In this document: positions 1 through 27,940 of the stretch, piece after piece
Position numbering within the stretch: position 1 is the stretch's first letter
Layout: every line of letters begins with the position of its first letter
Source: a virus
Taxonomy: Duplodnaviria; Heunggongvirae; Uroviricota; Caudoviricetes
Length of the DNA stretch: 27,940 bases
Reading direction: 5' to 3' (one strand)
IMG/VR virus record: IMGVR_UViG_2778261462_000004
The notes under the pieces: model-generated
What the model was told of the DNA's origin: nothing
Database searches by the model: none
What the model saw: only the letters and a program-made list of their open reading frames with translations
Made by a program: the position numbers and the translations under genes

Positions 1-1011
1 TTATAACGTTACTCCACCGTTAAGAGGATTCAGCGCGACGGCGTTCTGCAGGTAGTCAGGCGCAAGGTGAGCGTAGGCCATCGTCTGCTGAATGCTCGCA
101 TGCCCGAGAATCTGCTGCAGCGCAATTATGTTGCCCCCGTTCATCATGAAATGACTTGCGAATGTGTGTCGCAGGATGTGAGTTGCCTGATTGGGTGGTA
201 TGTCAGGTTTCACTCTGCGTAAAATTCCGCAAAACTTCTCATAATCGACCTTGAACAATTTAGCGCTAGCCTCCTCTTTAACTTTTTTCTCCAGTTCCTC
301 AGAAATTGGCACGGTTCGCTTTTTGCCGTTTTTGGTTTTCAAAAAGGTAACCCTGCAGCTTGTTATCTGTGCTGGTTTCAGTGTGGCAACTTCCGTCCAT
401 CTTCCGCCTGTGCTCAGGCACAAAAGCGCGACCAGCAAGTCATCACCAACCAAAACGCTTAACAGCTTCTCGATTTCTGATTTCTCCAGAAATGTCATTT
501 CCGGGTTGGCTTCCGCCAGTGGCGGCAGTCCATGAATAGGATGTTGCCCGGAAAACTCATCCAACTGGATTAGCTTGGTGAACATGCCCGATAAGCGGTA
601 CATGTCACGATTTATCGTCGCGGCGCTGATGCCATCACGCAGGCGCGTAGAGCGATAATCCATCAGAGCTCTTTTGCTAACCCGGCTCACCGGCATATCA
701 CCTATGCCGCTGATAGTCTTGAGCAGGTGATTAAACTCTTTTGTGCCGTGTTCATGGTTTTGTCCGTGATACTTCCACCAGACGTCAAGCAATTCCGCTA
801 AAGTGCGACGGTCTGCTCGCTGGCCTGCCCATTCTTTCTGGCTGGCATTGGCGATGGTGTATCGCTCAAATGCTACCGCCTCAGCCTTTCTTTCAAACTT
901 CCTGCGGATGCGTTTTCCATCGCGACCGCGAGGTCTAATGTCCACTTCATAGCGACCATCATCGAGCTTCTTAATTGCCATAAGAAAGCCCTCCGGCGCT
1001 GTGCTCACCAT
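1..1011 (-). CDS. int: P2-type tyrosine integrase (stop codon at window positions 1-3)
   Basis: 336-aa ORF; C-terminal catalytic signature visible (..ATHILRHTFASH.. and ..GHASIQQTMAYAHL.., the R/H-x-x-R and Tyr nucleophile region of tyrosine recombinases); sits 39 bp downstream of repressor C on the same strand as in the P2 C-int arrangement. Confidence 0.9.
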   Translation of the reverse strand: MVSTAPEGFLMAIKKLDDGRYEVDIRPRGRDGKRIRRKFERKAEAVAFERYTIANASQKEWAGQRADRRTLAELLDVWWKYHGQNHEHGTKEFNHLLKTISGIGDMPVSRVSKRALMDYRSTRLRDGISAATINRDMYRLSGMFTKLIQLDEFSGQHPIHGLPPLAEANPEMTFLEKSEIEKLLSVLVGDDLLVALLCLSTGGRWTEVATLKPAQITSCRVTFLKTKNGKKRTVPISEELEKKVKEEASAKLFKVDYEKFCGILRRVKPDIPPNQATHILRHTFASHFMMNGGNIIALQQILGHASIQQTMAYAHLAPDYLQNAVALNPLNGGVTL

Positions 1012-1050: not shown

Positions 1051-1344
1051 TTAACCAGTCTGTTTCTCGGAGTGGTCTGATTCCGTTGATTCTTGCCCAA
1101 TGTGTGCGAAAGCCGGTGCTATCTGACCAGCTTGCGGTGCTGTTTTATCTGTCATTAGCCAAAGTGTGTATTTCTGAAACTGAGGAGTGTTTGTGATTTT
1201 CATCACCACTCCCAAGCCGGGCTCTGCATGTCCTCCCTCGTAATTTTTTAACGTGCTAAGCGCTAGTCCACTGATTTCACAAAACTTTACTTGAGTTAAA
1301 CCCTCTGCTTTACGTATTGCCTTAATTTTCTCGGCTACGTTCAT
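1051..1344 (-). CDS. C: immunity repressor C (P2 C-like, 97 aa)
   Basis: Small ORF divergent from cox; N-terminal HTH-like segment and C-terminal ..QFxKYTLWxMT..APxxGQIAPAxAHxGQ.. matching my recollection of P2 C; size ~99 aa as in P2. Confidence 0.85.
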   Translation of the reverse strand: MNVAEKIKAIRKAEGLTQVKFCEISGLALSTLKNYEGGHAEPGLGVVMKITNTPQFQKYTLWLMTDKTAPQAGQIAPAFAHIGQESTESDHSEKQTG

Positions 1345-3236: not shown

Positions 3237-3508
3237 GCATTCGTATCGAGATTGGCGAGCGCTATGTCGTCACAAGTGACCGTTTTCAGTTCATTTTGCA
3301 GGAGAAAAAGACCGCTGAAACAGGGAAGAATGCCGGTAAAGAGTGGCTGGATGTTGTCGGCTATTACCCCAAATTAAACCAGCTCGTTTCCGGTCTGATT
3401 CATCACGATATTTTGAGCGGTAGCGCTGTCTCTTTTGAGGAATTGAGCGCTCAGGTTGAGCTACTCGGTCAGCAGTGTTTAAGGGCTTTTGACACAAATG
3501 GCCGTTGA
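3233..3508 (+). CDS. early hypothetical protein (91 aa), position of P2 orf83
   Basis: ATGA overlap with the preceding stop; ORF directly precedes A. Confidence 0.55.
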   Translation: MSIRIEIGERYVVTSDRFQFILQEKKTAETGKNAGKEWLDVVGYYPKLNQLVSGLIHHDILSGSAVSFEELSAQVELLGQQCLRAFDTNGR

Positions 3509-5789
3509 AATTCGGGGGCGTTCTGCCCCTACACCGCCACCACCATTTGCAAAAAACACCGGCAAAGAGTTTGCCGGTGTTTACTCATGGAACGCGCCGC
3601 GTGAGGCTATTGGGCGTGAGAGACCCCTTACACGTGACGAGCTGCGTCAGGTGCAAGGGGTTTTATCTAAAATTGACCGCCTACCTTACTTTTTAAGTTC
3701 TCTGTTTACTTCGCGCTATGAATATATCAGGCGCAACAAAAGCCCTGTGCATGGGCTGTATTTCCTCAAGTCGACATTTCTGCGCCGGTTGTGGCCGCGC
3801 ATTGAGCGGGTTAATCAGCGTAACGAAATGAATACAGAGGCGTCGCTGCTGTTTCTTGCTGAAAGTGAGAATTACGCGCGCCTGCCGGGGATGAACGATA
3901 AAGAGCTGAAAAAATTTGCGTCTCGTATCGCCTCGCAGCTTTTCATCATGTACGAGGAGTTAAGCGACGCATGGGCTGAGGCGCACGGTGGCAAAGAGTC
4001 GCTTTTTACCGATGAGGCTCAGGCGCACCTGTACGGTCATGTTGCTGGCGCAGCTCGTGCTTTTAATGTTGCCCCGCTTTTCTGGAAGAAATACCGCAAA
4101 GGCCTGATGACAATCCGACAGGCATTTTCCGCCGTCGCTCGCCTGATTAACGATGAATGGTGGACTAACCAGCTTAAGGCGCAGCGCATGCGCTGGCATG
4201 AAGCGCTGCTGATTGCTGCAGGCGAGGTGAATAAAGACCGCTCGCCGTATGCCAGTAAAAACGCCATCCGTGATGTGCATGCACGCCGCCTGGCAAATCT
4301 TGAATACCTGAAATCCTGCGAGCTGGAAAACAAAGTTACCGGCGAACGTATCGACCTTATCAGCAAAGTGATGGGAAGTATTTCCAATCCTGAAATTCGC
4401 CGCATGGAGCTGATGAACACCATTGCGGGGATTGAGCGTTATGCCGCTGCTGAGGGTGATGTCGGTATGTTTATCACGCTGACTGCACCGTCGAAGTATC
4501 ACCCGACTCGTCAAGTCGGGAAGGGTAAAGATAAGACTGTACAGCTTAATCATAGCTGGAATGGTGAGGCTTACACCCCGAAGGATGCGCAGCGTTATCT
4601 TTGCCGTATCTGGAGCCTGATGCGTACCGCTTTCAAAGATAATGATTTGCAGGTTTACGGTATGCGCGTCGTCGAACCGCACCATGACGGGACGCCGCAC
4701 TGGCACATGATGCTGTTTTGCAAGCGCCAGCAACGCAAAGAAATCACCGAAATTATGCGTCGTTATGCTCTCAAAGAGGATGGCGACGAGCGCGGTGCTG
4801 CTCGCAACCGCTTTCAGGCTAAGCACCTGAACAAAGGCGGTGCGGCCGGGTACATCGCGAAATACATCGCCAAAAATATCGACGGTTACGCGTTAGATGG
4901 CGAGCTCGATAAAGATACCGGCAAACCGCTCAAAGATACCGCCGCCGCTGTTACTGCATGGGCGTCAACGTGGCGAATCCCTCAGTTTAAGCCGATTGGC
5001 CTGCCGACGATGGGCGCTTACCGTGAGCTGCGCAAGCTGCCTCGCGGGGTCAGTATTGCTGATGAGTTTGACGAGCGTGTCGAAGCAGCACGCGCCGCGG
5101 CTGATGGCGGTGATTTCGACCTGTATATCACTGCTCAGGGCGGCGCAAATGTCCCGCGCGACGGTCAGACCGTCAGGGTCGCCCGTAGCGTCAGTGATGA
5201 GGTTAACGACTACGAAGAAGATATCGAGAGGGTGGTCGGTATTTACGCGCCTCACCTCGGCGCGCGTCACGTTCACATTACCCGGTCATCAGAATGGCGC
5301 ATCGTTCCAAAGGTTTTGGCCGTTGAGCCTTTGACCTTAAAAAGCGGCATCGCCGCGCCTCGGAGTCCTGTCAATAACTGTGGAAAGCTCACCGGCGGTG
5401 ACGTTTCGGTTATGACCACTACACCGTCTGAGTATGCCGCAGCGGTGTTAAATCTTGTTGATGACGGGGTTATCGCATGGGATGACCCCGAAGTCGTGAC
5501 GGCGCTCAAGGGCGCACTAAAACACGACGCGCCGCAGCAAAATCGTCAGCAAAGAAGTGGAGAGCCATTAAAACAGCATGACGTTGCCCCATCAGGCAGG
5601 CTGACTAAATCCGAACGCGCGCAAATACCGCGCATCCGCTTTGACCTTGCGCAGCAAGGCATCACTCCGAAGCGCTGGGAGCTTGAGGCGCTGGCGCGTG
5701 GTGCGACCGTGACATACCACGGGCAGAAATTCACATATCCGGTCGCTGATGAGTGGCCGGGGTTTACTGGTATATCTGAATGGGGGTAA
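3498..5789 (+). CDS. A: rolling-circle replication initiator A (HUH endonuclease), 763 aa from ATG 3498
   Basis: HUH motif ..GTPHWHMMLF.. and double-tyrosine active-site motif ..AGYIAKYIAKN.. visible in the translation; N-terminus MAVEIRGR..AGVYSWNAPREAIGRERPLTRDE.. close to P2 gpA as recalled. Confidence 0.93.
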   Translation: MAVEIRGRSAPTPPPPFAKNTGKEFAGVYSWNAPREAIGRERPLTRDELRQVQGVLSKIDRLPYFLSSLFTSRYEYIRRNKSPVHGLYFLKSTFLRRLWPRIERVNQRNEMNTEASLLFLAESENYARLPGMNDKELKKFASRIASQLFIMYEELSDAWAEAHGGKESLFTDEAQAHLYGHVAGAARAFNVAPLFWKKYRKGLMTIRQAFSAVARLINDEWWTNQLKAQRMRWHEALLIAAGEVNKDRSPYASKNAIRDVHARRLANLEYLKSCELENKVTGERIDLISKVMGSISNPEIRRMELMNTIAGIERYAAAEGDVGMFITLTAPSKYHPTRQVGKGKDKTVQLNHSWNGEAYTPKDAQRYLCRIWSLMRTAFKDNDLQVYGMRVVEPHHDGTPHWHMMLFCKRQQRKEITEIMRRYALKEDGDERGAARNRFQAKHLNKGGAAGYIAKYIAKNIDGYALDGELDKDTGKPLKDTAAAVTAWASTWRIPQFKPIGLPTMGAYRELRKLPRGVSIADEFDERVEAARAAADGGDFDLYITAQGGANVPRDGQTVRVARSVSDEVNDYEEDIERVVGIYAPHLGARHVHITRSSEWRIVPKVLAVEPLTLKSGIAAPRSPVNNCGKLTGGDVSVMTTTPSEYAAAVLNLVDDGVIAWDDPEVVTALKGALKHDAPQQNRQQRSGEPLKQHDVAPSGRLTKSERAQIPRIRFDLAQQGITPKRWELEALARGATVTYHGQKFTYPVADEWPGFTGISEWG

Positions 5790-5806
5790 TTGTGAGAAAA
5801 ATCTGT

Positions 5807-5980
5807 GTGATTGTTGGGTGGATTGCTGGGCTGTCGCTTTTCTTTCTGCTTCTTGGTTGGGCGGGTGAGCAAGACCGTAAAGACTGTGAGGAACGGATAG
5901 CAACAGAGCTGAAAACCACGGCTGTTTTTATAAACAATAAGTGCATGGTGAAGGGGTATGGCCGCTTTGACGGGAGGTGA
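5807..5980 (+). CDS. small single-pass membrane protein (57 aa from GTG 5807; alternative starts ATG 5780 / GTG 5792)
   Basis: Hydrophobic stretch ICVIVGWIAGLSLFFLLLGW followed by a charged tail; GAGAAA 7 nt before GTG 5807; sits where P2 carries orf91/tin/old; followed by a terminator. Confidence 0.4.
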   Translation: MIVGWIAGLSLFFLLLGWAGEQDRKDCEERIATELKTTAVFINNKCMVKGYGRFDGR

Positions 5981-6089
5981 CCTATCTGACCCGAGCAAAC
6001 GCCGCCGGTGCTGAAACTCGCTTTCAGTGCTGGCGGGGTTGAACAACGAGCCCCGCGAGGCGTTAGCCTGCCCCGTAGAGACCGCCCAC

Positions 6090-6118
6090 AACCGGCACGA
6101 TTAAAGCCGGTTTTTTTA
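6090..6118 (+). terminator. candidate intrinsic terminator of the early operon
   Basis: AACCGGC-acgattaaa-GCCGGTT hairpin followed by T7 run (6111-6117). Confidence 0.45.
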
Positions 6119-6277
6119 TGCCATTTTTCCGCGAATTTCCCGTTTTTAAGCCGTGCATGCAACAGGTGCATTGTTTTGCATGCGTCAGGCTTGCCCGTCT
6201 TGGCCGTGCGCCGCCAGTGCTGGCGCGGATCCAGAGTGGTCATGCAACTGCATTAAAACCGACCCATAAAGCGGGCA

Positions 6278-6296
6278 GGCGTGGCGGGGAAAGCAT
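6278..6296. other. cos cohesive-end site (GGCGTGGCGGGGAAAGCAT)
   Basis: 19-mer closely matching the 19-nt cohesive end I recall for P2/186-family phages (GGCG[A/T]GGCGGGGAAAGCA[C/T]); lies between the early region and portal Q, exactly where cos sits in P2. Confidence 0.6.
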
Positions 6297-6440
6297 TGCG
6301 CGCCAGCGGTGATGCGTAATGATAAAAATTATCGTCTGAGCGCGTCGTGATGGCGCTGCCGTGGATGCTGTCGGCTCGTTGGTGGTCTGGTGTGGTCGTG
6401 CGCGCGTGGCGCGTCTGAGGCGTGATGGTGGCGGGGTGTG

Positions 6441-6462
6441 AAAAAGCCGCCATGCTGGCGGC
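6441..6462 (-). terminator. intrinsic terminator downstream of Q on the minus strand
   Basis: GCCGCCA-tgc-TGGCGGC stem; on the minus strand it is followed by TTTTT (A5 at 6441-6445 on plus). Confidence 0.55.
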
Positions 6463-6473
6463 TTGAGGGGGGA

Positions 6474-7520
6474 TTATTCCGGGTTGTCGAGGGTGTACTC
6501 TTTGAACCTGATGACCTCCATGCCGAGCCAGTCGTTTACCTCCCTGAGCCTGTCCTGCAGGGGTGACAGCTCGTTACGCACGAATACTTTTGCCACCTTC
6601 TCAACGTCGCCGAGTGAGCCGATATTCTCGGGCTTGCCGCCCATGAGCTGGAACGGTACGCGGTGCGCGTCCATCAGGTCGGCGGCGCTGGCTTTCTTGA
6701 TGTTGAAAAAGTCATCCTTTGTGGCGACCTCGCTCAGTGGCAATATTTTGATGCCGTCCGGTTTTCCGCCGGGAGCATAGAAAAATAGGTTCTTAAAGTT
6801 CCCGAGCCCTTTCGAGTTGCGCATCGCCTCGCGCAGCGATTCGACGTCGGTCGCGCTCTGCGCCGGGTCGGTCACATACATGATGTAACCCGCGTGCGCG
6901 CCGTTCTGGTAATACTTGCGGCGAAACAGTGTCGCGGATTCATTCAGCCAGGCGGAATTTAGCGCGCTGAGATATTCGGGCAGGCCGTAAATCTCCTGAT
7001 TTATATCGGGCTCCAGCAGATGAAACACGGTATCAGGCGCGAACTCATGCGGAAGTGTGAAGTTTTCCACAAACCAGAATATCGAATCGTCGACCCCGCG
7101 CCGGGTATATTTGGCCGGTGAGGCAAGCAGCTTGATTAACTGGCCGGTGACGCTGTGGCGCTGCTCAAGAAAGGCGTTTCCGAATACCAGATAGTCGAGC
7201 GCAAAGCGGCTGAAATCCTGACGGGACAGCAGCGGGTGCGGAATGTAGGTGCTCGCGAGCACGTTGCGCTTAACGTAAATCGGTGAGCTGTGATGCACAG
7301 CAGAGCGCAGGCTCTTTGCCAGTCCGGAGAAGCTGACCGGCGGCTCGTACCATTTGCCGTTACTGATGCACTCGACGTAATCCAGAATATCGCGCTTATC
7401 GAGTACCGGAATCGGCTCGCCGAAGGTGAACGCTGTCGTTTTTGGCGGTGCGCTGGCGGTCAGTTGTTGTGGCTTGCTGGCCTTCTGCGCAGCGGCTTTA
7501 CGGGATTTTTGCTTACCCAT
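6474..7520 (-). CDS. Q: capsid portal protein Q (348 aa)
   Basis: Size and position match P2 Q; start ATG one nt from the P stop; leftward Q-P operon. Confidence 0.9.
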   Translation of the reverse strand: MGKQKSRKAAAQKASKPQQLTASAPPKTTAFTFGEPIPVLDKRDILDYVECISNGKWYEPPVSFSGLAKSLRSAVHHSSPIYVKRNVLASTYIPHPLLSRQDFSRFALDYLVFGNAFLEQRHSVTGQLIKLLASPAKYTRRGVDDSIFWFVENFTLPHEFAPDTVFHLLEPDINQEIYGLPEYLSALNSAWLNESATLFRRKYYQNGAHAGYIMYVTDPAQSATDVESLREAMRNSKGLGNFKNLFFYAPGGKPDGIKILPLSEVATKDDFFNIKKASAADLMDAHRVPFQLMGGKPENIGSLGDVEKVAKVFVRNELSPLQDRLREVNDWLGMEVIRFKEYTLDNPE

Positions 7521-7521
7521 T

Positions 7522-9291
7522 TTAGTTGAACTCCAGAATAGATTTAGGCTGCATGCCGCTACCGGCGGAAAGCGGTTCGTTTAACAGAGCGTGCATGGTT
7601 GCCCATGCGATATCGGCGTGACTGGCTTCCTCGGTGCGGCTGGCCTCGTAGGTGGCGCTGCGCCCGCTGCTGGTCATGGTTTTGCGGATGGACATAAACG
7701 ACTGCGTGACGTCGGTCGCCCCGGCGTCGTACTCCAGACAGCCGCGGCGAATGGTGTCTTTCGCCTTGAGTACCATCGCGGTTTTCATTTCGGGGGTGTA
7801 ACGGATGCCGCGTGCCGCCGGGTAGAATGAGCGCACCAACTGGAACACGCCGAGACCGAGGCCGGTTGCGTCAATGCCGATGTATTCGACGTTGTATTTC
7901 TCGGTCAGCTTGCGGATGCCCTCTGCCTGTGCGGCAAAGTCCATGCCCTTCCACTGGTGGCGCTCCAGCATGCGGAACTTGCCACCAGAAACCACCGGCG
8001 GCGCGAGCACGACGCACCCGGCGCTGTCGCCAGTGTGTGACGGGTCGTAGCCAATCCAGACGGGGCGAGAGCCGAACGGATGGTCGGCGAACGGGGCGAA
8101 GTCCTCCCATTCTTCCATCACGTCGACCATGCAGCGCTGCAGCTCCTCGAACGGGAATACCGAAGCTTTATCGTCGACAAACTCGCACATAAACAGGTTC
8201 TTAAAGTCCTCATCACTGTTTTCGCGTTTGAGCTGGTCGAGGTCGAACAGGGTGCAGCCACCGGCAAGGGCGTCCTCAATGGTGACAATCTGCCGCCACT
8301 GACCATCGTCGCAGAGCTGACCACCGGCGAGCGCGTCGTGGCTGATGTCGATTTCGATGCGGTCGGCAATACGGCTGCGACCCTTGTTGAACAGTTCGCC
8401 AGACCAGAAGGGGTAAGCGCCGTGCGCCAGCGTGGAAGGTGTCGAAAAGTAGGTTGAGCGCAGGTGCTTCTGCGAGGCCATGCCCGACGCGACTTTGCGC
8501 AGCTTCTGAAAATTCGGGATCCAGAATATTTCATCGACATACAGGTCGCCGTTATGGCTCTGCGCGGTATTGGAGTTGGTACCGAGAAAAATCAGCTTTG
8601 CGCCGTTGTTGCCGATGACAATCGGGTCGCCGGTCAGGTCGACGTCGACCAGTCGCGCAAACTGGATGATGTATTCGCGGAACACGTAAGCCTGAGTTTT
8701 ACTGGCCGACAGAAAGATTTGGTTATGGCCGGTCTTGAGTGCGCGCAGCAGCGCCTCGCGGGAGAAATAGAACGTCGCGCCAATCTGACGGGATTTGAGA
8801 ATGTCGCGAATACGGTGCGCCAGTCCTGCGCGGTACCACTGCAACTGGTACTCGAAAGACTGGTCGAAAAATAATTCTTCCAGTTTTTCGATAGCCTCGT
8901 CGCTGAAAAAGTTCTTTTTTGGCTTCTTACGCTCGCCCTTGTTACGGTTGGCGACATTGGGGTTAAGGTCGACCTCGTTGCCGGTCTGGCTGTAGCGGTT
9001 AACGCGTGCCAGTCGCTCAATCTGCCGCCCGAGCAGGTCAATCTCTTTGAAGTCGCCGCCTGACTTTTGCGGCTTGGCGATGAGCTGAATCAGGCGCGCC
9101 TCAAGGCTGCTTTCAACCCGGGAAATCGGTGCGATGCCGTCCCAGCCGTCGCGCTGCTTCCAGCTCTGCACGGTCGGGCGCTTGACCTGCAGCATTTCGG
9201 CAATCTGTGGCACGGAAAAGCCCTGCCAGTAAAGCAGCGATGCCTGCCGTCGCGGGTCATGCAACAAGGTTGTATCGGTGGAAATGGTCAT
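7522..9291 (-). CDS. P: terminase large (ATPase/nuclease) subunit P (589 aa)
   Basis: Size (P2 gpP ~590 aa) and position divergent from O; long well-behaved ORF. Confidence 0.9.
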   Translation of the reverse strand: MTISTDTTLLHDPRRQASLLYWQGFSVPQIAEMLQVKRPTVQSWKQRDGWDGIAPISRVESSLEARLIQLIAKPQKSGGDFKEIDLLGRQIERLARVNRYSQTGNEVDLNPNVANRNKGERKKPKKNFFSDEAIEKLEELFFDQSFEYQLQWYRAGLAHRIRDILKSRQIGATFYFSREALLRALKTGHNQIFLSASKTQAYVFREYIIQFARLVDVDLTGDPIVIGNNGAKLIFLGTNSNTAQSHNGDLYVDEIFWIPNFQKLRKVASGMASQKHLRSTYFSTPSTLAHGAYPFWSGELFNKGRSRIADRIEIDISHDALAGGQLCDDGQWRQIVTIEDALAGGCTLFDLDQLKRENSDEDFKNLFMCEFVDDKASVFPFEELQRCMVDVMEEWEDFAPFADHPFGSRPVWIGYDPSHTGDSAGCVVLAPPVVSGGKFRMLERHQWKGMDFAAQAEGIRKLTEKYNVEYIGIDATGLGLGVFQLVRSFYPAARGIRYTPEMKTAMVLKAKDTIRRGCLEYDAGATDVTQSFMSIRKTMTSSGRSATYEASRTEEASHADIAWATMHALLNEPLSAGSGMQPKSILEFN

Positions 9292-17194: not shown

Positions 17195-17795
17195 CCGACT
17201 GTTACCCGTTGGCTCGTCGCCACTGGAGGTTGCCGCCGCTGCCGCGCTCTCTGAGATTCAGCGCGTGCCGGTACCGCTGCGCACACTGTGGAACTGGCGC
17301 ACCTGCCCGGTAAACCTGCTGCCATATCTGGCGTGGGCGCTGTCGGTCGACAGGTGGGATGAGAAGTGGCCGGAGGCAACAAAGCGCAGCGTCTGCGCCT
17401 CCTCGTTTTTCGTCCATCAGCATAAAGGCACTATCAGCGCATTGCGCCGGGTGGTCGAGCCGCTCGGCTTTCTGATTGAGGTGCGCGAGTGGTGGCAGCT
17501 CGACGAGGAGCCAGGCACATTCCGTCTTGTTGTCGGCGTGCTCGACAGCGGCATCACTGACGAAATGTATCAGGAGCTTGAGCGTCTGATTGAAGACGCC
17601 AAACCGGCAAGCCGCCATCTGACCGGGCTGGCTATCAGCCTGAGTGCAACCGGTGAGTTCTTTGTCGGCGCGGGATGTTACGACGGTGACGCGCTGACCG
17701 TTTACCCCTACACCCCCGAGGAAATTGTCGTCGGCGGTGAATATTACCCGGCCTCGGCCATCCATTTGATTGATAACCTGAGAGTGAACGCATGA
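17187..17795 (+). CDS. I: baseplate protein I (202 aa)
   Basis: Overlaps J stop and H start; position as P2 gpI. Confidence 0.85.
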   Translation: MSDRLLPVGSSPLEVAAAAALSEIQRVPVPLRTLWNWRTCPVNLLPYLAWALSVDRWDEKWPEATKRSVCASSFFVHQHKGTISALRRVVEPLGFLIEVREWWQLDEEPGTFRLVVGVLDSGITDEMYQELERLIEDAKPASRHLTGLAISLSATGEFFVGAGCYDGDALTVYPYTPEEIVVGGEYYPASAIHLIDNLRVNA

Positions 17796-18904
17796 CCGCA
17801 AAATATTTTGCCATTCTGACCAATCAGGGCGCGGCGCGACTGGCGAACGCGGCGGCACTCGGTACCAAACTCAACCTGACGCAGATGGCCGTCGGTGATG
17901 CGAATGGTACGCTGCCGACCCCTGACCCGGCACAGACGAAGCTCATTAACCAGAAGCGCATCGCGCCGCTGAACCTGCTGACCGTTGACCCGGCAAATAC
18001 CAGCCAGATTATCGCGGAACAGATTATTCCAGAGAATGAGGGCGGCTTCTGGATCCGCGAGATTGGTATCTACGATGACGACGGCATTCTGATTGCCGTG
18101 GCGAACTGCCCAGAGACCTACAAGCCGCAACTGCAGGAGGGAAGCGGACGCACGCAGACCATTCGCATGATTCTGATTGTGTCAAGCACGTCGTCTATTA
18201 CCCTGAAAATCGACCCGTCGGTTGTGCTGGCAACCCGAAAATATGCCGATGACAAGGCAATTGAGCTGAAACTGTATGTCGATGACTTGATGTCTAAGCA
18301 CCTTGCGGCGGCTGACCCGCATTCACAATATGCTACAAAGGACAGCCCGACCTTTACCGGCAAGCCAAAAGCACCCACGCCGCCGGTCGTAGCAAATGAT
18401 AAACAAGTTGCTACAGCGGAGTTTGTGCAGGCGGTTATTGCCGCCCTTGTATCCGGGGAACTGGCGAATAAGCAGCCGCTGGATAAGACGCTAACAGACC
18501 TGTCAGGGAAAGATGTCGCCGCTATTCTCGAATACCTTGGTTTGAAAGAAGCGGCTCAAAGGGATGTTGGGACTGACATTAACCAGATTCCGGATATGTC
18601 AGCGTGGGACTCTGGATCTAACTGGCGTAGAACGCCAGATGGGTTTATCGAAGTGTGGGGCGATTCATCTGTCACAAACACGTCAACCGGAATTGCTGTT
18701 GCAACATTTCCGGTTCCATTTCCTAATGAGTGTTTGAGCGTCATGATTAATGAAGTGACCAATGTGGCATCTGGTATTTCAGGTGTTAAATCGTGGGGGT
18801 TAGCGCGTGACACAATATCAAAAACAGGTGTATCAGCGATATTGAATGTCACAGGCAGTCCGGCAGCTGGCGAGTTTTTTGTTTATCGTGCAATCGGGAG
18901 ATAA
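17792..18904 (+). CDS. H: tail fibre protein H (short form, 370 aa)
   Basis: N-terminal ~150 aa resemble the P2 gpH N-terminus (..MAVGD..GGFW.RE.G.YDD.G.LIAVAN..YKP...EGSGR.QT.RM..IVSS..); C-terminal ~110 aa carry a ..PDGFIEVWG..VATFPVPFPNECLSV.. motif typical of phage side-tail-fibre tips. Confidence 0.85.
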   Translation: MTAKYFAILTNQGAARLANAAALGTKLNLTQMAVGDANGTLPTPDPAQTKLINQKRIAPLNLLTVDPANTSQIIAEQIIPENEGGFWIREIGIYDDDGILIAVANCPETYKPQLQEGSGRTQTIRMILIVSSTSSITLKIDPSVVLATRKYADDKAIELKLYVDDLMSKHLAAADPHSQYATKDSPTFTGKPKAPTPPVVANDKQVATAEFVQAVIAALVSGELANKQPLDKTLTDLSGKDVAAILEYLGLKEAAQRDVGTDINQIPDMSAWDSGSNWRRTPDGFIEVWGDSSVTNTSTGIAVATFPVPFPNECLSVMINEVTNVASGISGVKSWGLARDTISKTGVSAILNVTGSPAAGEFFVYRAIGR

Positions 18905-18905
18905 T

Positions 18906-19136
18906 ATGAGCAAATATATTTGGTCAGCAAAAAATAATTCATTTATCCCCGTCACATTAATACAATTATATATTAATGCGGGATGGGATTTGTCAGATGC
19001 TATCCCCATTGATGACGCAGTTTCCGCCGAATTTATGGGAGAGCCGCCAGACGGGAAAAGACGAGATGTCGGCGGCGATGGTCTTCCGTGCTGGGTAAAT
19101 GTCAACCAGCCTGGTCAGGTGGAACAGGCCAGTTAA
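18906..19136 (+). CDS. G: tail fibre assembly chaperone G (76 aa, apparently truncated relative to P2 gpG)
   Basis: GGGAGA RBS; N-terminus MSKYIWSAKNNSFIPV.. is the typical Tfa N-terminal motif; ORF is much shorter than P2 gpG (~175 aa). Confidence 0.6.
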   Translation: MSKYIWSAKNNSFIPVTLIQLYINAGWDLSDAIPIDDAVSAEFMGEPPDGKRRDVGGDGLPCWVNVNQPGQVEQAS

Positions 19137-19183
19137 TATCTGGTGCGCTGGATACGTCCACCGCTTCCAGCGTATCCCTAAAG

Positions 19184-19208
19184 AAAAAGCCGCTCTACGC
19201 GGCTTTTT
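19184..19208. terminator. bidirectional intrinsic terminator between G and the convergent minus-strand ORF
   Basis: AAAAAGCCGC-tctac-GCGGCTTTTT: GC stem flanked by A5 and T5. Confidence 0.6.
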
Positions 19209-19209
19209 C

Positions 19210-19548
19210 TTACATCCCGAGTGCAAAATACGTATAGCTGTCAATATTGGTTGCCACTCCCCCCCCATTCCATCCATAAAGACTAAAGCCAGTTAAGGTA
19301 TAATTAACTGACGTCACATACCGATTGTCAGCTGTGATTTTATGCGGCAAAACGATAAACGGGGTGACGTTGAACGGCTTTTTATACCGTACAGTAGCGT
19401 TGGTCGCCTGAACAGAACCGCTCCCCCATTGCAGCAAAAATCCTCCGGGCAATTCAAAGTAGCCATTAGCCTCCAGCAGCCGATCTCCAAAACCAACCTT
19501 TGAAAGAATGGCGGGCTGATGCCCGTCTTTTTTTGATTTATTTATGTG
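19210..19548 (-). pseudogene. orphan tail-fibre C-terminal domain fragment in inverted orientation (113 codons stop-to-stop, no ATG)
   Basis: Minus-strand frame open from the stop at 19549-19551 to the stop at 19210-19212, translating ..NGYFELPGGFLLQWGSGSV..KKPFNVTPF..; same motif pattern as the H tip (..PDGFIEVWG..TFPVPFPN..); only a TTG start with no adjacent SD. Confidence 0.4.
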
Positions 19549-19634
19549 TCATCGGCTATCCATCGCCGACAAATAGCCCCTCACCAGACCAGCCAGGACA
19601 ATAACACTCGCCCACTAACCACGGAGTTAACCGG

Positions 19635-20822
19635 ATGAGTGATTTTCACCACGGCGTACAGGTGCTTGAGATTAACGACGGCACCCGCGTCATTTCCACT
19701 GTCGCAACCGCAATCGTCGGCATGGTCTGCACGGCCAGCGATGCGGATGCCGAAACATTCCCCCTCAATGAGCCGGTACTGATTACCAATGTGCAGAGCG
19801 CCATTGCGAAAGCCGGTAAAAAAGGCACGCTGGCTGCATCCCTGCAGGCTATCGCCGACCAGTCAAAACCCGTCACCGTTGTCGTGCGCGTCGCCGAAGG
19901 TGTCGACGATGACCCGGATGCAGCTCAGGCGCAGACCATTTCTAACATCATCGGCGGCACGGATGAGAACGGTAAATACACCGGTATCAAGGCGCTGTTG
20001 ACTGCCGAAGCAGTCACCGGCGTTAAGCCGCGTATTCTCGGCGTGCCGGGTCTCGATACGCAGGAAGTCGCAACCGCACTCGCGTCGGTCTGTATCAGCC
20101 TGCGCGCCTTTGGCTATGTCAGCGTATGGGGCTGTAAGACCATTTCCGAAGCGATGGCCTATCGCGAGAATTTCAGTCAGCGCGAGCTGATGGTCATCTG
20201 GCCTGACTTCCTCGCATGGGATACTACCGCGAACGCCACCGCAACGGCTTACGCCACGGCGCGGGCGCTCGGCCTGCGCGCCTACATCGACCAAACTGTC
20301 GGCTGGCATAAAACCCTGTCCAACGTCGGCGTGCAGGGTGTCACCGGCATCAGTGCCTCAGTGTTTTGGGATTTGCAGGCATCCGGCACCGATGCTGACC
20401 TGCTCAACGAGGCCGGGGTCACGACGCTGGTACGCAAAGATGGTTTCCGCTTTTGGGGTAACCGCACCTGCTCTGATGACCCGCTTTTCCTGTTTGAGAA
20501 CTACACCCGCACCGCGCAGGTGCTGGCCGACACGATGGCCGAGGCGCACATGTGGGCGGCCGATAAGCCCATTACCGCATCGCTCATTCGTGACATTGTC
20601 GACGGCATTAATGCCAAATTCCGCGAGCTGAAATCTAACGGCTACATCGTAGACGGTGAATGCTGGTTCGACGAGGAATCGAACGATAAGGAAACCCTCA
20701 AGGCCGGGAAACTGTATATCGACTACGACTATACGCCGGTTCCCCCACTGGAAAGCCTGACCCTGCGCCAGCGTATCACCGATAAATATCTGGTGAATCT
20801 GGCCGAATCGGTCAACAGCTAA
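19635..20822 (+). CDS. FI: tail sheath protein FI (395 aa)
   Basis: GGAG RBS; size as P2 FI (~396 aa). Confidence 0.93.
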   Translation: MSDFHHGVQVLEINDGTRVISTVATAIVGMVCTASDADAETFPLNEPVLITNVQSAIAKAGKKGTLAASLQAIADQSKPVTVVVRVAEGVDDDPDAAQAQTISNIIGGTDENGKYTGIKALLTAEAVTGVKPRILGVPGLDTQEVATALASVCISLRAFGYVSVWGCKTISEAMAYRENFSQRELMVIWPDFLAWDTTANATATAYATARALGLRAYIDQTVGWHKTLSNVGVQGVTGISASVFWDLQASGTDADLLNEAGVTTLVRKDGFRFWGNRTCSDDPLFLFENYTRTAQVLADTMAEAHMWAADKPITASLIRDIVDGINAKFRELKSNGYIVDGECWFDEESNDKETLKAGKLYIDYDYTPVPPLESLTLRQRITDKYLVNLAESVNS

Positions 20823-26003: not shown

Positions 26004-26080
26004 TTTTAATTTATCCGTTTGTTATATAAGGATTTATTGAGTAAAATTAACACATCAGCCAAATCGTTGAGGTGCTTAAT

Positions 26081-26299
26081 ATGTTTCATTGCCCGTTATG
26101 CCAGCATGCAGCCCATGCACGTACAAGCCGTTACATGACCGATACAACAAAGGAGCGTTATCACCAGTGTCAGAACGTGAATTGTAGCGCCACGTTCATT
26201 ACATTTGAGTCGGTGCAGCGTTACATTGTTAAGCCAGGTGAGGTTAATGCCGTCAGGCCTCACCCGTTGCCATCGGGTCAGCAAACTATGTGGATGTAA
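26081..26299 (+). CDS. ogr: late-gene transcriptional activator Ogr (zinc finger, 72 aa from ATG 26081)
   Basis: MFHCPLCQHAAHARTSRY.TDTTKERYHQCQNVNCSATFIT.ESVQRYIVKPGE..AVRPHPLPSGQQ.MWM, near-identical to P2 Ogr as recalled; GAGGTG RBS 7 nt upstream. Confidence 0.93.
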   Translation: MFHCPLCQHAAHARTSRYMTDTTKERYHQCQNVNCSATFITFESVQRYIVKPGEVNAVRPHPLPSGQQTMWM

Positions 26300-26304
26300 C
26301 CACA

Positions 26305-26341
26305 AACAAAAAGCCCCGCGATTGCGGGGCTTGTTTATTTT
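26305..26341. terminator. bidirectional intrinsic terminator between convergent ogr and the moron ORF
   Basis: GCCCCGC-gatt-GCGGGGC stem (26313-26330) flanked by an A-rich run upstream and TTGTTTATTTT downstream. Confidence 0.7.
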
Positions 26342-26751
26342 GACTTTGGCATTCCAAACATATGCGTTTTTGAGAGCATCACAACTTTAGCTCTGTCATC
26401 TGGCTCTTTACCCATCTCGTTACAAGTTGCGAGAGGCTGTTCGAGCACATAACCAAATGCTTTATGTTTATTCAGTACGTGCAATTCTTTAGTTGTTTTC
26501 ATGTAGGAATTCGGTACATCTTTTGTCCAAACATCCATGCAAATTCCTGAGCTTATGACCGCATCATAAATTTCAGGTGTAACTTGGTTTGCGTCCAAAA
26601 CGACAGTGACAATGTTATTACTTTCTTCTATTTCAATCGGTTGCCATAATTTTAGCTGCTTTTGCAAGGTTTTTACGTTATTCGTTTGGGCGTGGGCGGG
26701 GATAGACAGAAGAATGGCGACGACCGCAACTACCGATTTGAGGTTAAACAT
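26335..26751 (-). CDS. secreted/periplasmic protein of unknown function (138 aa), AT-rich moron
   Basis: Sec-type signal peptide MFNLKSVVAVVAILLSIPAHA-QT; AAGGA RBS 6 nt before ATG; candidate promoter (TTGTTT-17-TATAAA) upstream on the minus strand; AT-rich relative to the phage backbone by eye; two Cys in the mature part; no recognised family. Confidence 0.6.
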   Translation of the reverse strand: MFNLKSVVAVVAILLSIPAHAQTNNVKTLQKQLKLWQPIEIEESNNIVTVVLDANQVTPEIYDAVISSGICMDVWTKDVPNSYMKTTKELHVLNKHKAFGYVLEQPLATCNEMGKEPDDRAKVVMLSKTHMFGMPKSK

Positions 26752-27011: not shown

Positions 27012-27037
27012 AGCGTCAGTTGATAGCGGGAGTATTT

Positions 27038-27940
27038 ATGAATCAATCTTATGGACGGCTGGTCAGTCGGGCGGCGATTGCTGCGACGGCGATGGCTTCG
27101 CTGCTATTGCTGATTAAAATTTTTGCATGGTGGTATACCGGGTCGGTGAGTATTCTCGCCGCGCTGGTGGATTCGCTGGTGGATATCGGCGCGTCGTTGA
27201 CGAATTTATTGGTGGTGCGATATTCCCTGCAACCTGCCGACGATAATCACTCGTTTGGTCACGGTAAAGCTGAGTCCCTCGCGGCGCTGGCGCAAAGTAT
27301 GTTTATCTCCGGTTCGGCACTATTCCTGTTTTTGACGGGTATTCAACATCTGATATCTCCAACACCGATGACAGATCCAGGCGTCGGGGTTATCGTGACA
27401 ATTGTGGCGCTAATTTGTACGATTATCCTTGTCTCGTTTCAGCGTTGGGTGGTGCGGCGGACGCAAAGCCAGGCGGTGCGGGCTGATATGCTACATTACC
27501 AGTCTGATGTTATGATGAACGGCGCAATTCTGCTGGCGCTGGGGTTGTCCTGGTACGGCTGGCATCGCGCCGATGCTCTGTTTGCATTGGGAATCGGCAT
27601 CTATATTTTATATAGCGCGTTACGCATGGGATATGAGGCGGTACAGTCATTACTGGATCGCGCATTGCCTGATGAGGAACGGCAAGAAATTATTGATATC
27701 GTGACTTCCTGGCCGGGTGTTAGCGGCGCTCACGATCTTCGCACGCGGCAGTCAGGGCCGACCCGCTTTATTCAGATTCATTTGGAAATGGAAGACTCTC
27801 TGCCTTTGGTTCAGGCACATATGGTGGCGGATCAGGTAGAGCAGGCTATTTTACGGCGTTTTCCGGGATCGGATGTAATTATCCATCAGGACCCCTGTTC
27901 CGTCGTACCCAGGGAGGGTAAACGGTCTATGCTTTCATAA
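27038..27940 (+). CDS. fieF: cation-diffusion-facilitator family Fe/Zn efflux transporter FieF (YiiP), 300 aa, host gene
   Basis: GGGAG RBS; translation [49 protein letters not shown].. matches E. coli FieF as I recall it; six predicted TM helices and C-terminal cytoplasmic domain. Confidence 0.93.

Follow-up and report, generated by a model that had tools for sequence, protein, structure and literature searches.

The stretch of DNA analysed here in full (27,940 nt; IMG/VR record IMGVR_UViG_2778261462_000004; hereafter the window) is a P2-like prophage that reaches from the stop codon of the integrase gene through to the host gene fieF. Our subject is a small open reading frame (ORF) of 62 codons, which begins 2 nt past the stop codon of the replication gene A and shares the short interval between A and the cohesive end site cos with a set of conserved non-coding elements. 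The small ORF, as judged from homology and from its pattern of substitution, is a real gene and a new member of an already catalogued, uncharacterised family, while the rest of the interval resembles the right end of phage 186. The following features lie at the locus:

3489-5789, plus strand: gene A, rolling-circle replication initiator of 766 amino acids (aa; phrog_91, E=0)
5782-5786, plus strand: GGGGG, a run resembling a Shine-Dalgarno (SD) sequence, 5 nt before the GTG at 5792, kept in all P2-like copies
5792-5980, plus strand: small ORF, 62 codons and TGA, member of phrog_14089
5801-5866, plus strand: codons 4-25 of the small ORF, predicted signal-anchor or transmembrane (TM) segment ICVIVGWIAGLSLFFLLLGWAG, 22 uncharged residues with a mean Kyte-Doolittle value of 2.2
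5867-5977, plus strand: codons 26-62, predicted periplasmic tail with Cys32 (5885-5887), Cys51 (5942-5944) and the motif NG.C.VKGYG
5996-6067, plus strand: conserved element of ~70 nt in the 3' untranslated region, a 15-16-bp hairpin (6000-6038) and then the invariant run GTTGAACAACGAG
6090-6119, plus strand: intrinsic terminator of the t95b type, stem-loop (6090-6112) and U7, aligning to the annotated terminator of 186 at 30436-30463
6120-6277, no strand: left flank of cos, 158 bp, non-coding, 186-type right end
6278-6296, plus strand: cos, the 19-nt cohesive end GGCGTGGCGGGGAAAGCAT, 19/19 identical to the annotated cos of 186 (positions 1-19)
6441-6464, minus strand: terminator of the portal/terminase operon, tW homologue, aligning to 186 positions 164-187 (annotated tW)
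6474-7520, minus strand: portal gene Q (phrog_68, E=8.5e-169), right boundary of the hotspot

Because A ends at 5789 (its stop codon is the TAA at 5787-5789) and the cos identical to that of 186 begins at 6278, the A-to-cos interval measures 488 bp. From the A stop codon to the portal stop codon the distance is 685 bp, as against 1030-6760 bp in 56 relatives, which are species representatives encoding a related A plus a portal. The collapse of the interval is real and extreme, although this prophage is not alone in it: E. coli CAVP776 and four IMG/VR contigs are arranged in the same way, their gaps measuring ~685-690 bp. An earlier sequence-only reading of this DNA had described a P2-like phage in which an A-to-cos interval of ~490 bp is collapsed to one credible gene followed by a terminator, with no room for a multi-gene system. 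Each of these points was borne out, as int, a helix-turn-helix (HTH) C repressor, Cox, A and Ogr are present, a single conserved ORF (5780 or 5792 to 5980) occupies the interval, no multi-gene system is present in it, and the terminator lies 110 nt downstream of the ORF. In addition, the domain PF05840 (Phage_GPA) was found in A at near-identical loci. Several other candidates in the region were rejected: the minus-strand ORFs at 5546-6091 and 5764-6243, where the pattern of conservation fits the plus-strand frame of the small ORF; the plus-strand ORFs at 6008-6256 and 6118-6312, which match a stretch of the 186 right end that has no annotated coding sequence; and a terminator-like site inside the small ORF (5907-5923), whose frequency equals chance.

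The start codon of the small ORF is most likely GTG 5792 (62 aa), rather than ATG 5780 (66 aa) or GTG 5807 (57 aa), because homologues are 62 aa long with starts that align there, because the SD-like run stands 5 nt upstream, and because in E. coli CAVP776 the ATG at 5780 is replaced by ACG while GTG 5792 is kept. Of the membrane protein of 57-66 aa originally proposed, the gene itself, its one TM segment and its charged tail were thus retained, and its length most likely settles at 62 residues. The ribosome-binding site lies inside the last ~8 codons of A, and homology with relatives that do not carry the small ORF ends at ~5757-5768, likewise inside the 3' end of A.

That we are dealing with a real gene is indicated by the match to phrog_14089, by the many clusters of homologues, and by strong purifying selection on the tail. 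The match to this family of unknown function (E=5e-20) pairs residues 11-66 of the 66-aa reading with profile positions 4-59 of 59, and reciprocal profile searches bring back the Kuravirus and prophage members of phrog_14089. Eight clusters came from a word-indexed search, seven of them exactly 62 aa long and beginning with MK; a filter-free hidden Markov model (HMM) search of 1.84 billion representatives returned only 18 clusters at 50% identity, and a profile search 85 clusters at 90% identity, every one named 'hypothetical'. All family members measure 50-73 aa and have the same layout. Identity is 30-40% to the Kuravirus proteins and 56-68% to the 62-aa prophage proteins, with which the window protein has in common its length, the N-terminal anchor, the two invariant Cys and NG.C.VKGYG; unlike in the contexts of the other family members, the gene here follows a P2-type A and is the last before cos. 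Comparisons between contexts whose DNA is only 71-77% identical gave a ratio of nonsynonymous to synonymous substitution rates (dN/dS) of 0.10-0.19 for the ORF overall, 0.07-0.12 for the tail (codons 25-62), where synonymous sites are near saturation, and 0.25-1.0 for the hydrophobic segment. The tail is under strong purifying selection and constraint on the hydrophobic segment is relaxed, as anchors lead one to expect. One might suspect an ORF that arose by chance, or a remnant in decay without function in this prophage, as PGAP leaves the small ORF unannotated in E. coli CAVP776 and M10, one P2-like lineage has a stop at codon 10, and 62-codon ORFs are common by chance; against an intact copy that keeps all conserved residues, strong purifying selection in the tail across contexts with 65-76% DNA identity, and an HMM family of 85 clusters, we give this reading only the slimmest of chances. 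We found no study of phiEco32 gp46 or of the phrog_14089 family in the literature, and the name 'DUF1482 family protein' that UniRef gives to one of the homologues (P0052) was set aside, being neither reproducible with Pfam nor backed by literature.

The uncharged segment is flanked by a net charge of +3 on its N-terminal and -3 on its C-terminal side, and by the positive-inside rule the N-terminus (MRK) is predicted to be cytoplasmic and the 37-residue tail periplasmic (N-in/C-out). The same polarity recurs among 23 members, with N-flanks of +2 to +4, C-flanks of 0 to -3 in nearly all (one stands at +1), and an uncharged stretch of 12-22 residues that is effectively longer where a single Gln breaks it. 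The tail itself is of mixed charge (8 K/R vs 7 D/E). In the alignment of the 23 members C32 and C51 are invariant, K54 and G55 are conserved in at least 90%, and the spacing between the two Cys is 18-19 residues in 23/23; Cys32 and Cys51 thus probably form a disulfide within the periplasmic tail. Close homologues have a G/A/V-W-A motif that could allow cleavage by signal peptidase; since distant members do not have this motif, we treat the segment as an anchor. An AlphaFold2 model from 22 sequences predicts one helix (residues 2-40), which includes Cys32, and a beta-hairpin (44-53), whose second strand includes Cys51 (predicted local distance difference test score, pLDDT, 75.6).

Searches for a relative with a described function returned little. 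Pfam and NCBIfam had no match to the small ORF and the 23 members beyond scattered noise in single members, PADLOC gave 0 families at E<=10 for the small ORF, a sequence search of the PDB found no match to the small protein, and the BFVD structures that Foldseek retrieved all belonged to this uncharacterised family. The helix-hairpin matches of scorpion-toxin-like kind that Foldseek found in the PDB were non-significant (E>3) and were taken as geometry, not homology.

The best promoter-like site, TTGACA-18-TATATT, was found at 1345-1374 between the repressor gene and cox, which is where Pe sits in P2. A consensus scan detected no sigma-70-like site in 5400-6600 and a single weak site between 1374 and 5792. 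Having no promoter of its own, and with its GTG 2 nt past the A stop codon and its SD inside A, the small ORF would most simply close the early Pe operon (cox-B-...-A) as its last cistron, translationally coupled to A, with the transcript ending at 6119. In other phages the phrog_14089 gene overlaps the upstream ORF by 4 nt. The terminator at 6090-6119 consists of a 7-bp stem, a 9-nt loop and the U7 run, and was missed by our consensus scan because of its loop length. From its place as the last cistron of the operon, the product would be made after infection or induction and not in the repressed lysogen.

The remainder of the interval can be read against phage 186. Window positions 5996-6277 are 92.6% identical to 186 positions 30342-30624, i.e. 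the last 283 bp of that genome, which start 7 nt past the orf97 stop codon; the similarity continues for ~190 bp beyond cos (92% identity in a pairwise alignment with 186 positions 1-200), and apart from the identical cos 19-mer both terminators, t95b and tW, are conserved. This part of the interval is conserved backbone of the 186 type and not debris. Between A and the hairpin, 186 carries the LexA-controlled SOS operon tum/orf97 (p95-tum-orf97), where the window has only the 62-aa ORF. A search for a LexA box of the kind expected for a 186-like SOS operon remained at chance level, and the immunity region is of the P2 type (C/Cox), unlike that of 186. The last ~160 bp had been called non-coding and repeat-rich; the former holds for the 158 bp at 6120-6277, whereas the latter was mildly overstated, given that the cos flank has one 13-nt direct repeat (6154/6177) and one palindrome, CGCCGCCAGTGCTGGCG, at 6209-6228.

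The hairpin element deserves separate mention. Its stem has three G.U pairs, so that full pairing is achieved only in plus-strand RNA; the RNA fold has a z of -3.2, 13 aligned copies display compensatory changes in 4 stem pairs, and with a covariance model the plus strand reaches 78-105 bits, the minus strand 17-27. Copies were found in a series of comparison loci (our numbering: L001 3501-3572, L003 3001-3071, L009, L013, L015, L018, L035, L045, L082, which has two, and L085), after the stop codon of whichever gene ends the post-A series, while the element is absent from P2 itself and from most relatives outside the Enterobacteriaceae. Protection of the transcript 3' end, a processing site or a recombination anchor are candidate roles. 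Rfam yielded chance-level matches only in 5400-6600, and neither the hairpin nor the cos flank was assigned to a family.

Comparison of relatives shows that in this lineage the interval comprises two sub-slots, one coupled to A (from A to the hairpin) and one for cargo (from the hairpin to the cos flank), because the hairpin follows varied post-A genes and cargo enters past the hairpin. With respect to the former, the hairpin comes after tum/orf97 in 186, after a tum-type gene in Klebsiella phage RCIP0057 and, in place of the small ORF, after an orf91-like DUF3850 protein and a 72-aa ORF in L018, while in L015 nothing stands between A and the hairpin. With respect to the latter, P2-like relatives that bear the small ORF are collinear with the window to 6066-6067 (a break seen in L002 and L079-82), then diverge and rejoin at 6090, 6165 or 6242. 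The insert consists of three genes in Salmonella prophages whose small ORF is 95% identical, and two of these genes score as PD-Lambda-5_A and PD-Lambda-5_B, a methyltransferase (locus L079); it is a 311-aa ORF in P2SIDE7 and E. coli M10, and a 69-aa ORF followed by the second hairpin copy in L082. In the window the small ORF occupies the A-coupled sub-slot and the cargo sub-slot is empty.

Two further occupants of the A-coupled sub-slot were seen, both uncharacterised: a very acidic protein of 58 aa (MADFAST...AWGDD) and a protein of 69-78 aa (...MAIVHRLQ.IMVNENLTP.ELVGCAEIVRDN...PPPRRP), whose stop codon stands directly before the hairpin. One or both of them occur in L085 1733-2145 (E. coli 600029), L045, L082 5412-5621 and L018 10735-10953.

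The A-Q interval is the main defence hotspot of P2 (PMC9122126; PMC13586616), so the earlier remark to this effect was correct. The label 'old/tin locus', on the other hand, does not suit the small ORF. P2 tin and old are on the opposite strand, have their own promoter and start next to cos, unlike the small ORF, which sits in the position of orf91. This P2 gene is on the same strand, overlaps the A stop codon and is the last early-operon cistron before the cargo; the small ORF is hence its positional counterpart, without any sequence relation, as orf91 encodes a 109-aa soluble DUF3850 protein. Similarly, old/tin and the PD-Lambda-5-like cargo of Salmonella lie in the same A-Q interval, but are independent transcription units between the hairpin and the cos flank.

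These observations bear on the proposal that the small ORF is a minimal piece of defence cargo, i.e. a membrane toxin, abortive-infection effector or exclusion factor that is expressed from the prophage and guards the lysogen as tin and old do. The ORF does lie within the main P2 defence hotspot, its product is predicted to be a membrane protein, and its presence is variable: it was found at 0/64 species-representative loci with a related A, and its DNA in 5/5426 complete E. coli genomes, 370 of which share the flanks. The comparison across relatives asked for by the sequence-only reading therefore identifies it as variable and not as backbone. Its N-terminal TM segment and short periplasmic tail also loosely recall the Hok/Gef type I toxins, which, at ~50-60 aa, cross the membrane once with the N-terminus inside and end in a periplasmic tail bearing Cys and a CE-[IV]-R-like motif ('CE.R' in the small protein); the small protein differs from them in its longer tail and its second invariant Cys. 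We rejected a Hok/Gef identity, as the 23 members have no match to Pfam Hok_gef at E<=10 and hhalign, run on a hand-typed Hok alignment, gave a probability of 1.4%. There was no sign of an antisense-RNA/mok arrangement, with Rfam finding no match in 5400-6600 and no search having been aimed at an antisense promoter. More generally, the small ORF has no promoter of its own and is coupled to A, it stands in the orf91 and not in the tin/old position, it coexists with a genuine defence system further downstream in relatives, where cargo inserts past the hairpin, PADLOC, Pfam and NCBIfam find no match, and its homologues reside in replication and nin operons and in the lytic Kuravirus. What remains of the proposal is a variable membrane protein; the hotspot position does not support a role as toxin, abortive-infection effector or exclusion factor, and prophage-borne defence cargo is in our view an improbable explanation.

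The contexts of the family point elsewhere. In the strictly lytic Kuravirus (phiEco32 gp46, phi32_46) the gene stands a few small genes past the DNA polymerase gene, in a cluster reported as middle class (PMC8948821). In prophages with PolA, SNF2, DUF2800 and Enc34-SSB it directly follows a 71-aa ORF downstream of PolA, in lambdoid prophages it lies between the replication genes and NinB (the nin region), and in a distant P2-like contig it is located upstream of A. Throughout, the gene points the same way as the operon around it; overlap with the upstream gene is seen in most of these contexts, and no partner gene is conserved. From P2-like to PolA-type and lambdoid prophages, and over many Enterobacterales, the tail hardly changes. 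That phages differing in virion and host have so nearly invariant a tail argues for a host target that is itself conserved, and the tail would most likely bind a conserved component of the host envelope rather than a phage-specific one.

Conservation of the tail does not make the gene indispensable. A pseudogene lineage has a stop in place of Trp10 (W10stop, TGG to TAG) in P2SIDE7, four IMG/VR contigs, E. coli M10 and probably three more E. coli (L002 3180-3368; L094, L095, L097, L099; L125 2508-2696). The allele also carries G22C, T42I, R58C and D60E, as well as C32S in some copies, and it is always followed by the 311-aa ORF of unknown function, for which PADLOC has no match. As one lineage retains an inactivated allele, the small gene is dispensable.

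Taken together, we consider the small ORF to be an accessory gene that acts on the envelope during the lytic cycle and not defence cargo of the hotspot, and we estimate the probability of this reading at roughly 0.75. Under it, the product would be a bitopic inner-membrane protein with a 22-residue signal anchor and a cytoplasmic N-terminus, whose C-terminal 37 residues would face the periplasm as a helix and beta-hairpin stapled by the Cys32-Cys51 disulfide. It might protect a cell in which productive infection is under way against envelope damage or the entry of further phages, and such protection would amount to superinfection exclusion during lytic growth in the style of T4 Imm and Spackle (Sp; PMC7677548), which are small, early and of the membrane or periplasm, as is predicted for the product here, and serve as a working analogy only. 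A role specifically in superinfection exclusion is the first in our ranking of functions, followed by anti-defence or takeover, prophage defence or toxicity, lysis timing and no function; even so, it is a tentative assignment with the odds against it. The whole explanation, i.e. a 186-type right end, an empty cargo sub-slot and an envelope protein of the early operon, we regard as an even bet.

A number of points weigh against the reading of a lytic-cycle envelope protein and, above all, against exclusion. The confidence of the AlphaFold2 model is only moderate, the topology and the disulfide are predicted from charge bias and conservation, and a weak promoter within the 3' part of A could have escaped the consensus scan. 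As a rule, temperate phages express their exclusion genes from the prophage, and a place in the early operon does not favour this. Since myo-, podo- and lambdoid phages, whose entry routes differ, all carry members of the family, a single target of exclusion is not obvious. No similarity to a characterised exclusion protein was found in sequence or fold: T4_Spackle was matched in 1/23 members at E=0.07, which we regard as noise, and fold searches of BFVD and the PDB returned only members of the same family or non-significant matches.

Another reading is counter-defence or host takeover, with the periplasmic domain inhibiting a host envelope protein in lytic growth, be it a membrane-embedded, envelope-sensing defence system, an enzyme of the cell wall or of division, or a sensor of stress. 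Small size, early or middle expression, non-essentiality and a scattered occurrence in the accessory regions of unrelated phages, lytic ones included, would all fit, and the extreme conservation of the tail across hosts suggests a conserved host target here too. With no similarity to known anti-defence proteins or inhibitors, and with a target that is entirely hypothetical, we hold this to be unlikely. Lysis timing is a further option, in which an antiholin-like periplasmic domain would modulate holin, spanin or signal-anchor-release (SAR) endolysin: T4 RI is built alike, from an N-terminal anchor and a small periplasmic domain, and the Kuravirus copies are located ~2 kb from an Rz-like spanin gene. 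The gene is, however, never found inside a lysis cassette, being far from Y/K/lysABC in P2-like phages and in the nin region of lambdoid ones, and the tail is nearly invariant among phage groups whose holins have no relation to one another. Features of holins or spanins were not seen in the small protein itself, as there is no lipobox, the tail has only 37 residues and the gene stands outside the lysis cassette of the window (at ~13.0-14.3 kb, as placed via the matching CAVP776 annotation). A lysis-timing role is accordingly very improbable.

Returning to the lytic-cycle envelope protein, its reach could be wider than this prophage. A disulfide-stapled mini-domain that binds one conserved envelope protein of the Enterobacterales, and that unrelated phages use against competitors or against envelope-sensing defence, in a lineage with both classical hotspots empty, would be the most far-reaching combination, which we consider doubtful as a whole. 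The family is a compact, well-conserved and tractable unknown common to lytic and temperate coliphages, and identification of its partner in the periplasm could expose a weak point that hosts have in common. For the 186-type A-Q hotspot our comparison implies two parts, an early-operon tail coupled to A (orf91, tum-type genes, the small ORF) and a cargo slot past the hairpin, and surveys of gene content that leave the A-Q interval undivided can take genes of the early operon for defence candidates. To a specialist these findings are not very surprising and their interest is modest.

A survey of 1511 P2 elements from 2026 never observed both main hotspots without genes in one genome (PMC13586616). 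In the CAVP776 prophage (L086, NZ_CM176338), which is seemingly complete, P2-like and situated next to cpxP, RefSeq lists no genes at 20005-20688 (A-portal) and 33907-34038 (tail-fibre assembly-sheath), and the window is laid out like CAVP776 at both hotspots. If ORF calling misses the 62-aa gene, the lineage would count as a case with both hotspots empty, contrasting with that survey; a nearly cargo-free P2-like prophage is useful as a chassis, and also for testing whether the hotspots are indeed never empty together.

The remaining features that place the locus within the window are these:

1-1011, minus strand: int, P2-type early/regulatory gene
1051-1344, minus strand: HTH C-type repressor, P2-type regulatory gene
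1457-1753: Cox, P2-type
7522-9291, minus strand: terminase gene P
26072-26299: Ogr
27020-27940: host fieF

At 17792-19635 the tail-fibre gene H (370 aa, with a Gp53-like_C tip) is followed by a short ORF for tail-fibre assembly. A second Gp53-like_C fragment on the opposite strand (19210-19452) suggests a remnant or an alternative fibre tip, as in an invertible-segment system, though no invertase was seen. As the stretch from the tail-fibre region to FI (19635) has no cargo genes, the Z/fun-type hotspot also looks empty.

From the int stop codon at 1 to the end of ogr at 26299 the prophage spans ~26.3 kb, compared with 30.6 kb in 186 and 33.6 kb in P2. This is very small for a P2-like prophage, perhaps close to the least that a P2-size head can stably package. 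Between ogr and fieF there is an AT-rich island, in which 26335-26751 (minus strand) encodes a protein of 138 aa with a signal-peptide-like N-terminus; it belongs to phrog_3807, of unknown function (E=1e-62), and has no match in Pfam. Stem-loops rich in G+C and followed by T runs were read by eye on both sides of the gene. The gene has the look of a moron situated at the ogr-attR end, and the accessory cargo of this prophage may be located there instead of in the A-Q hotspot.

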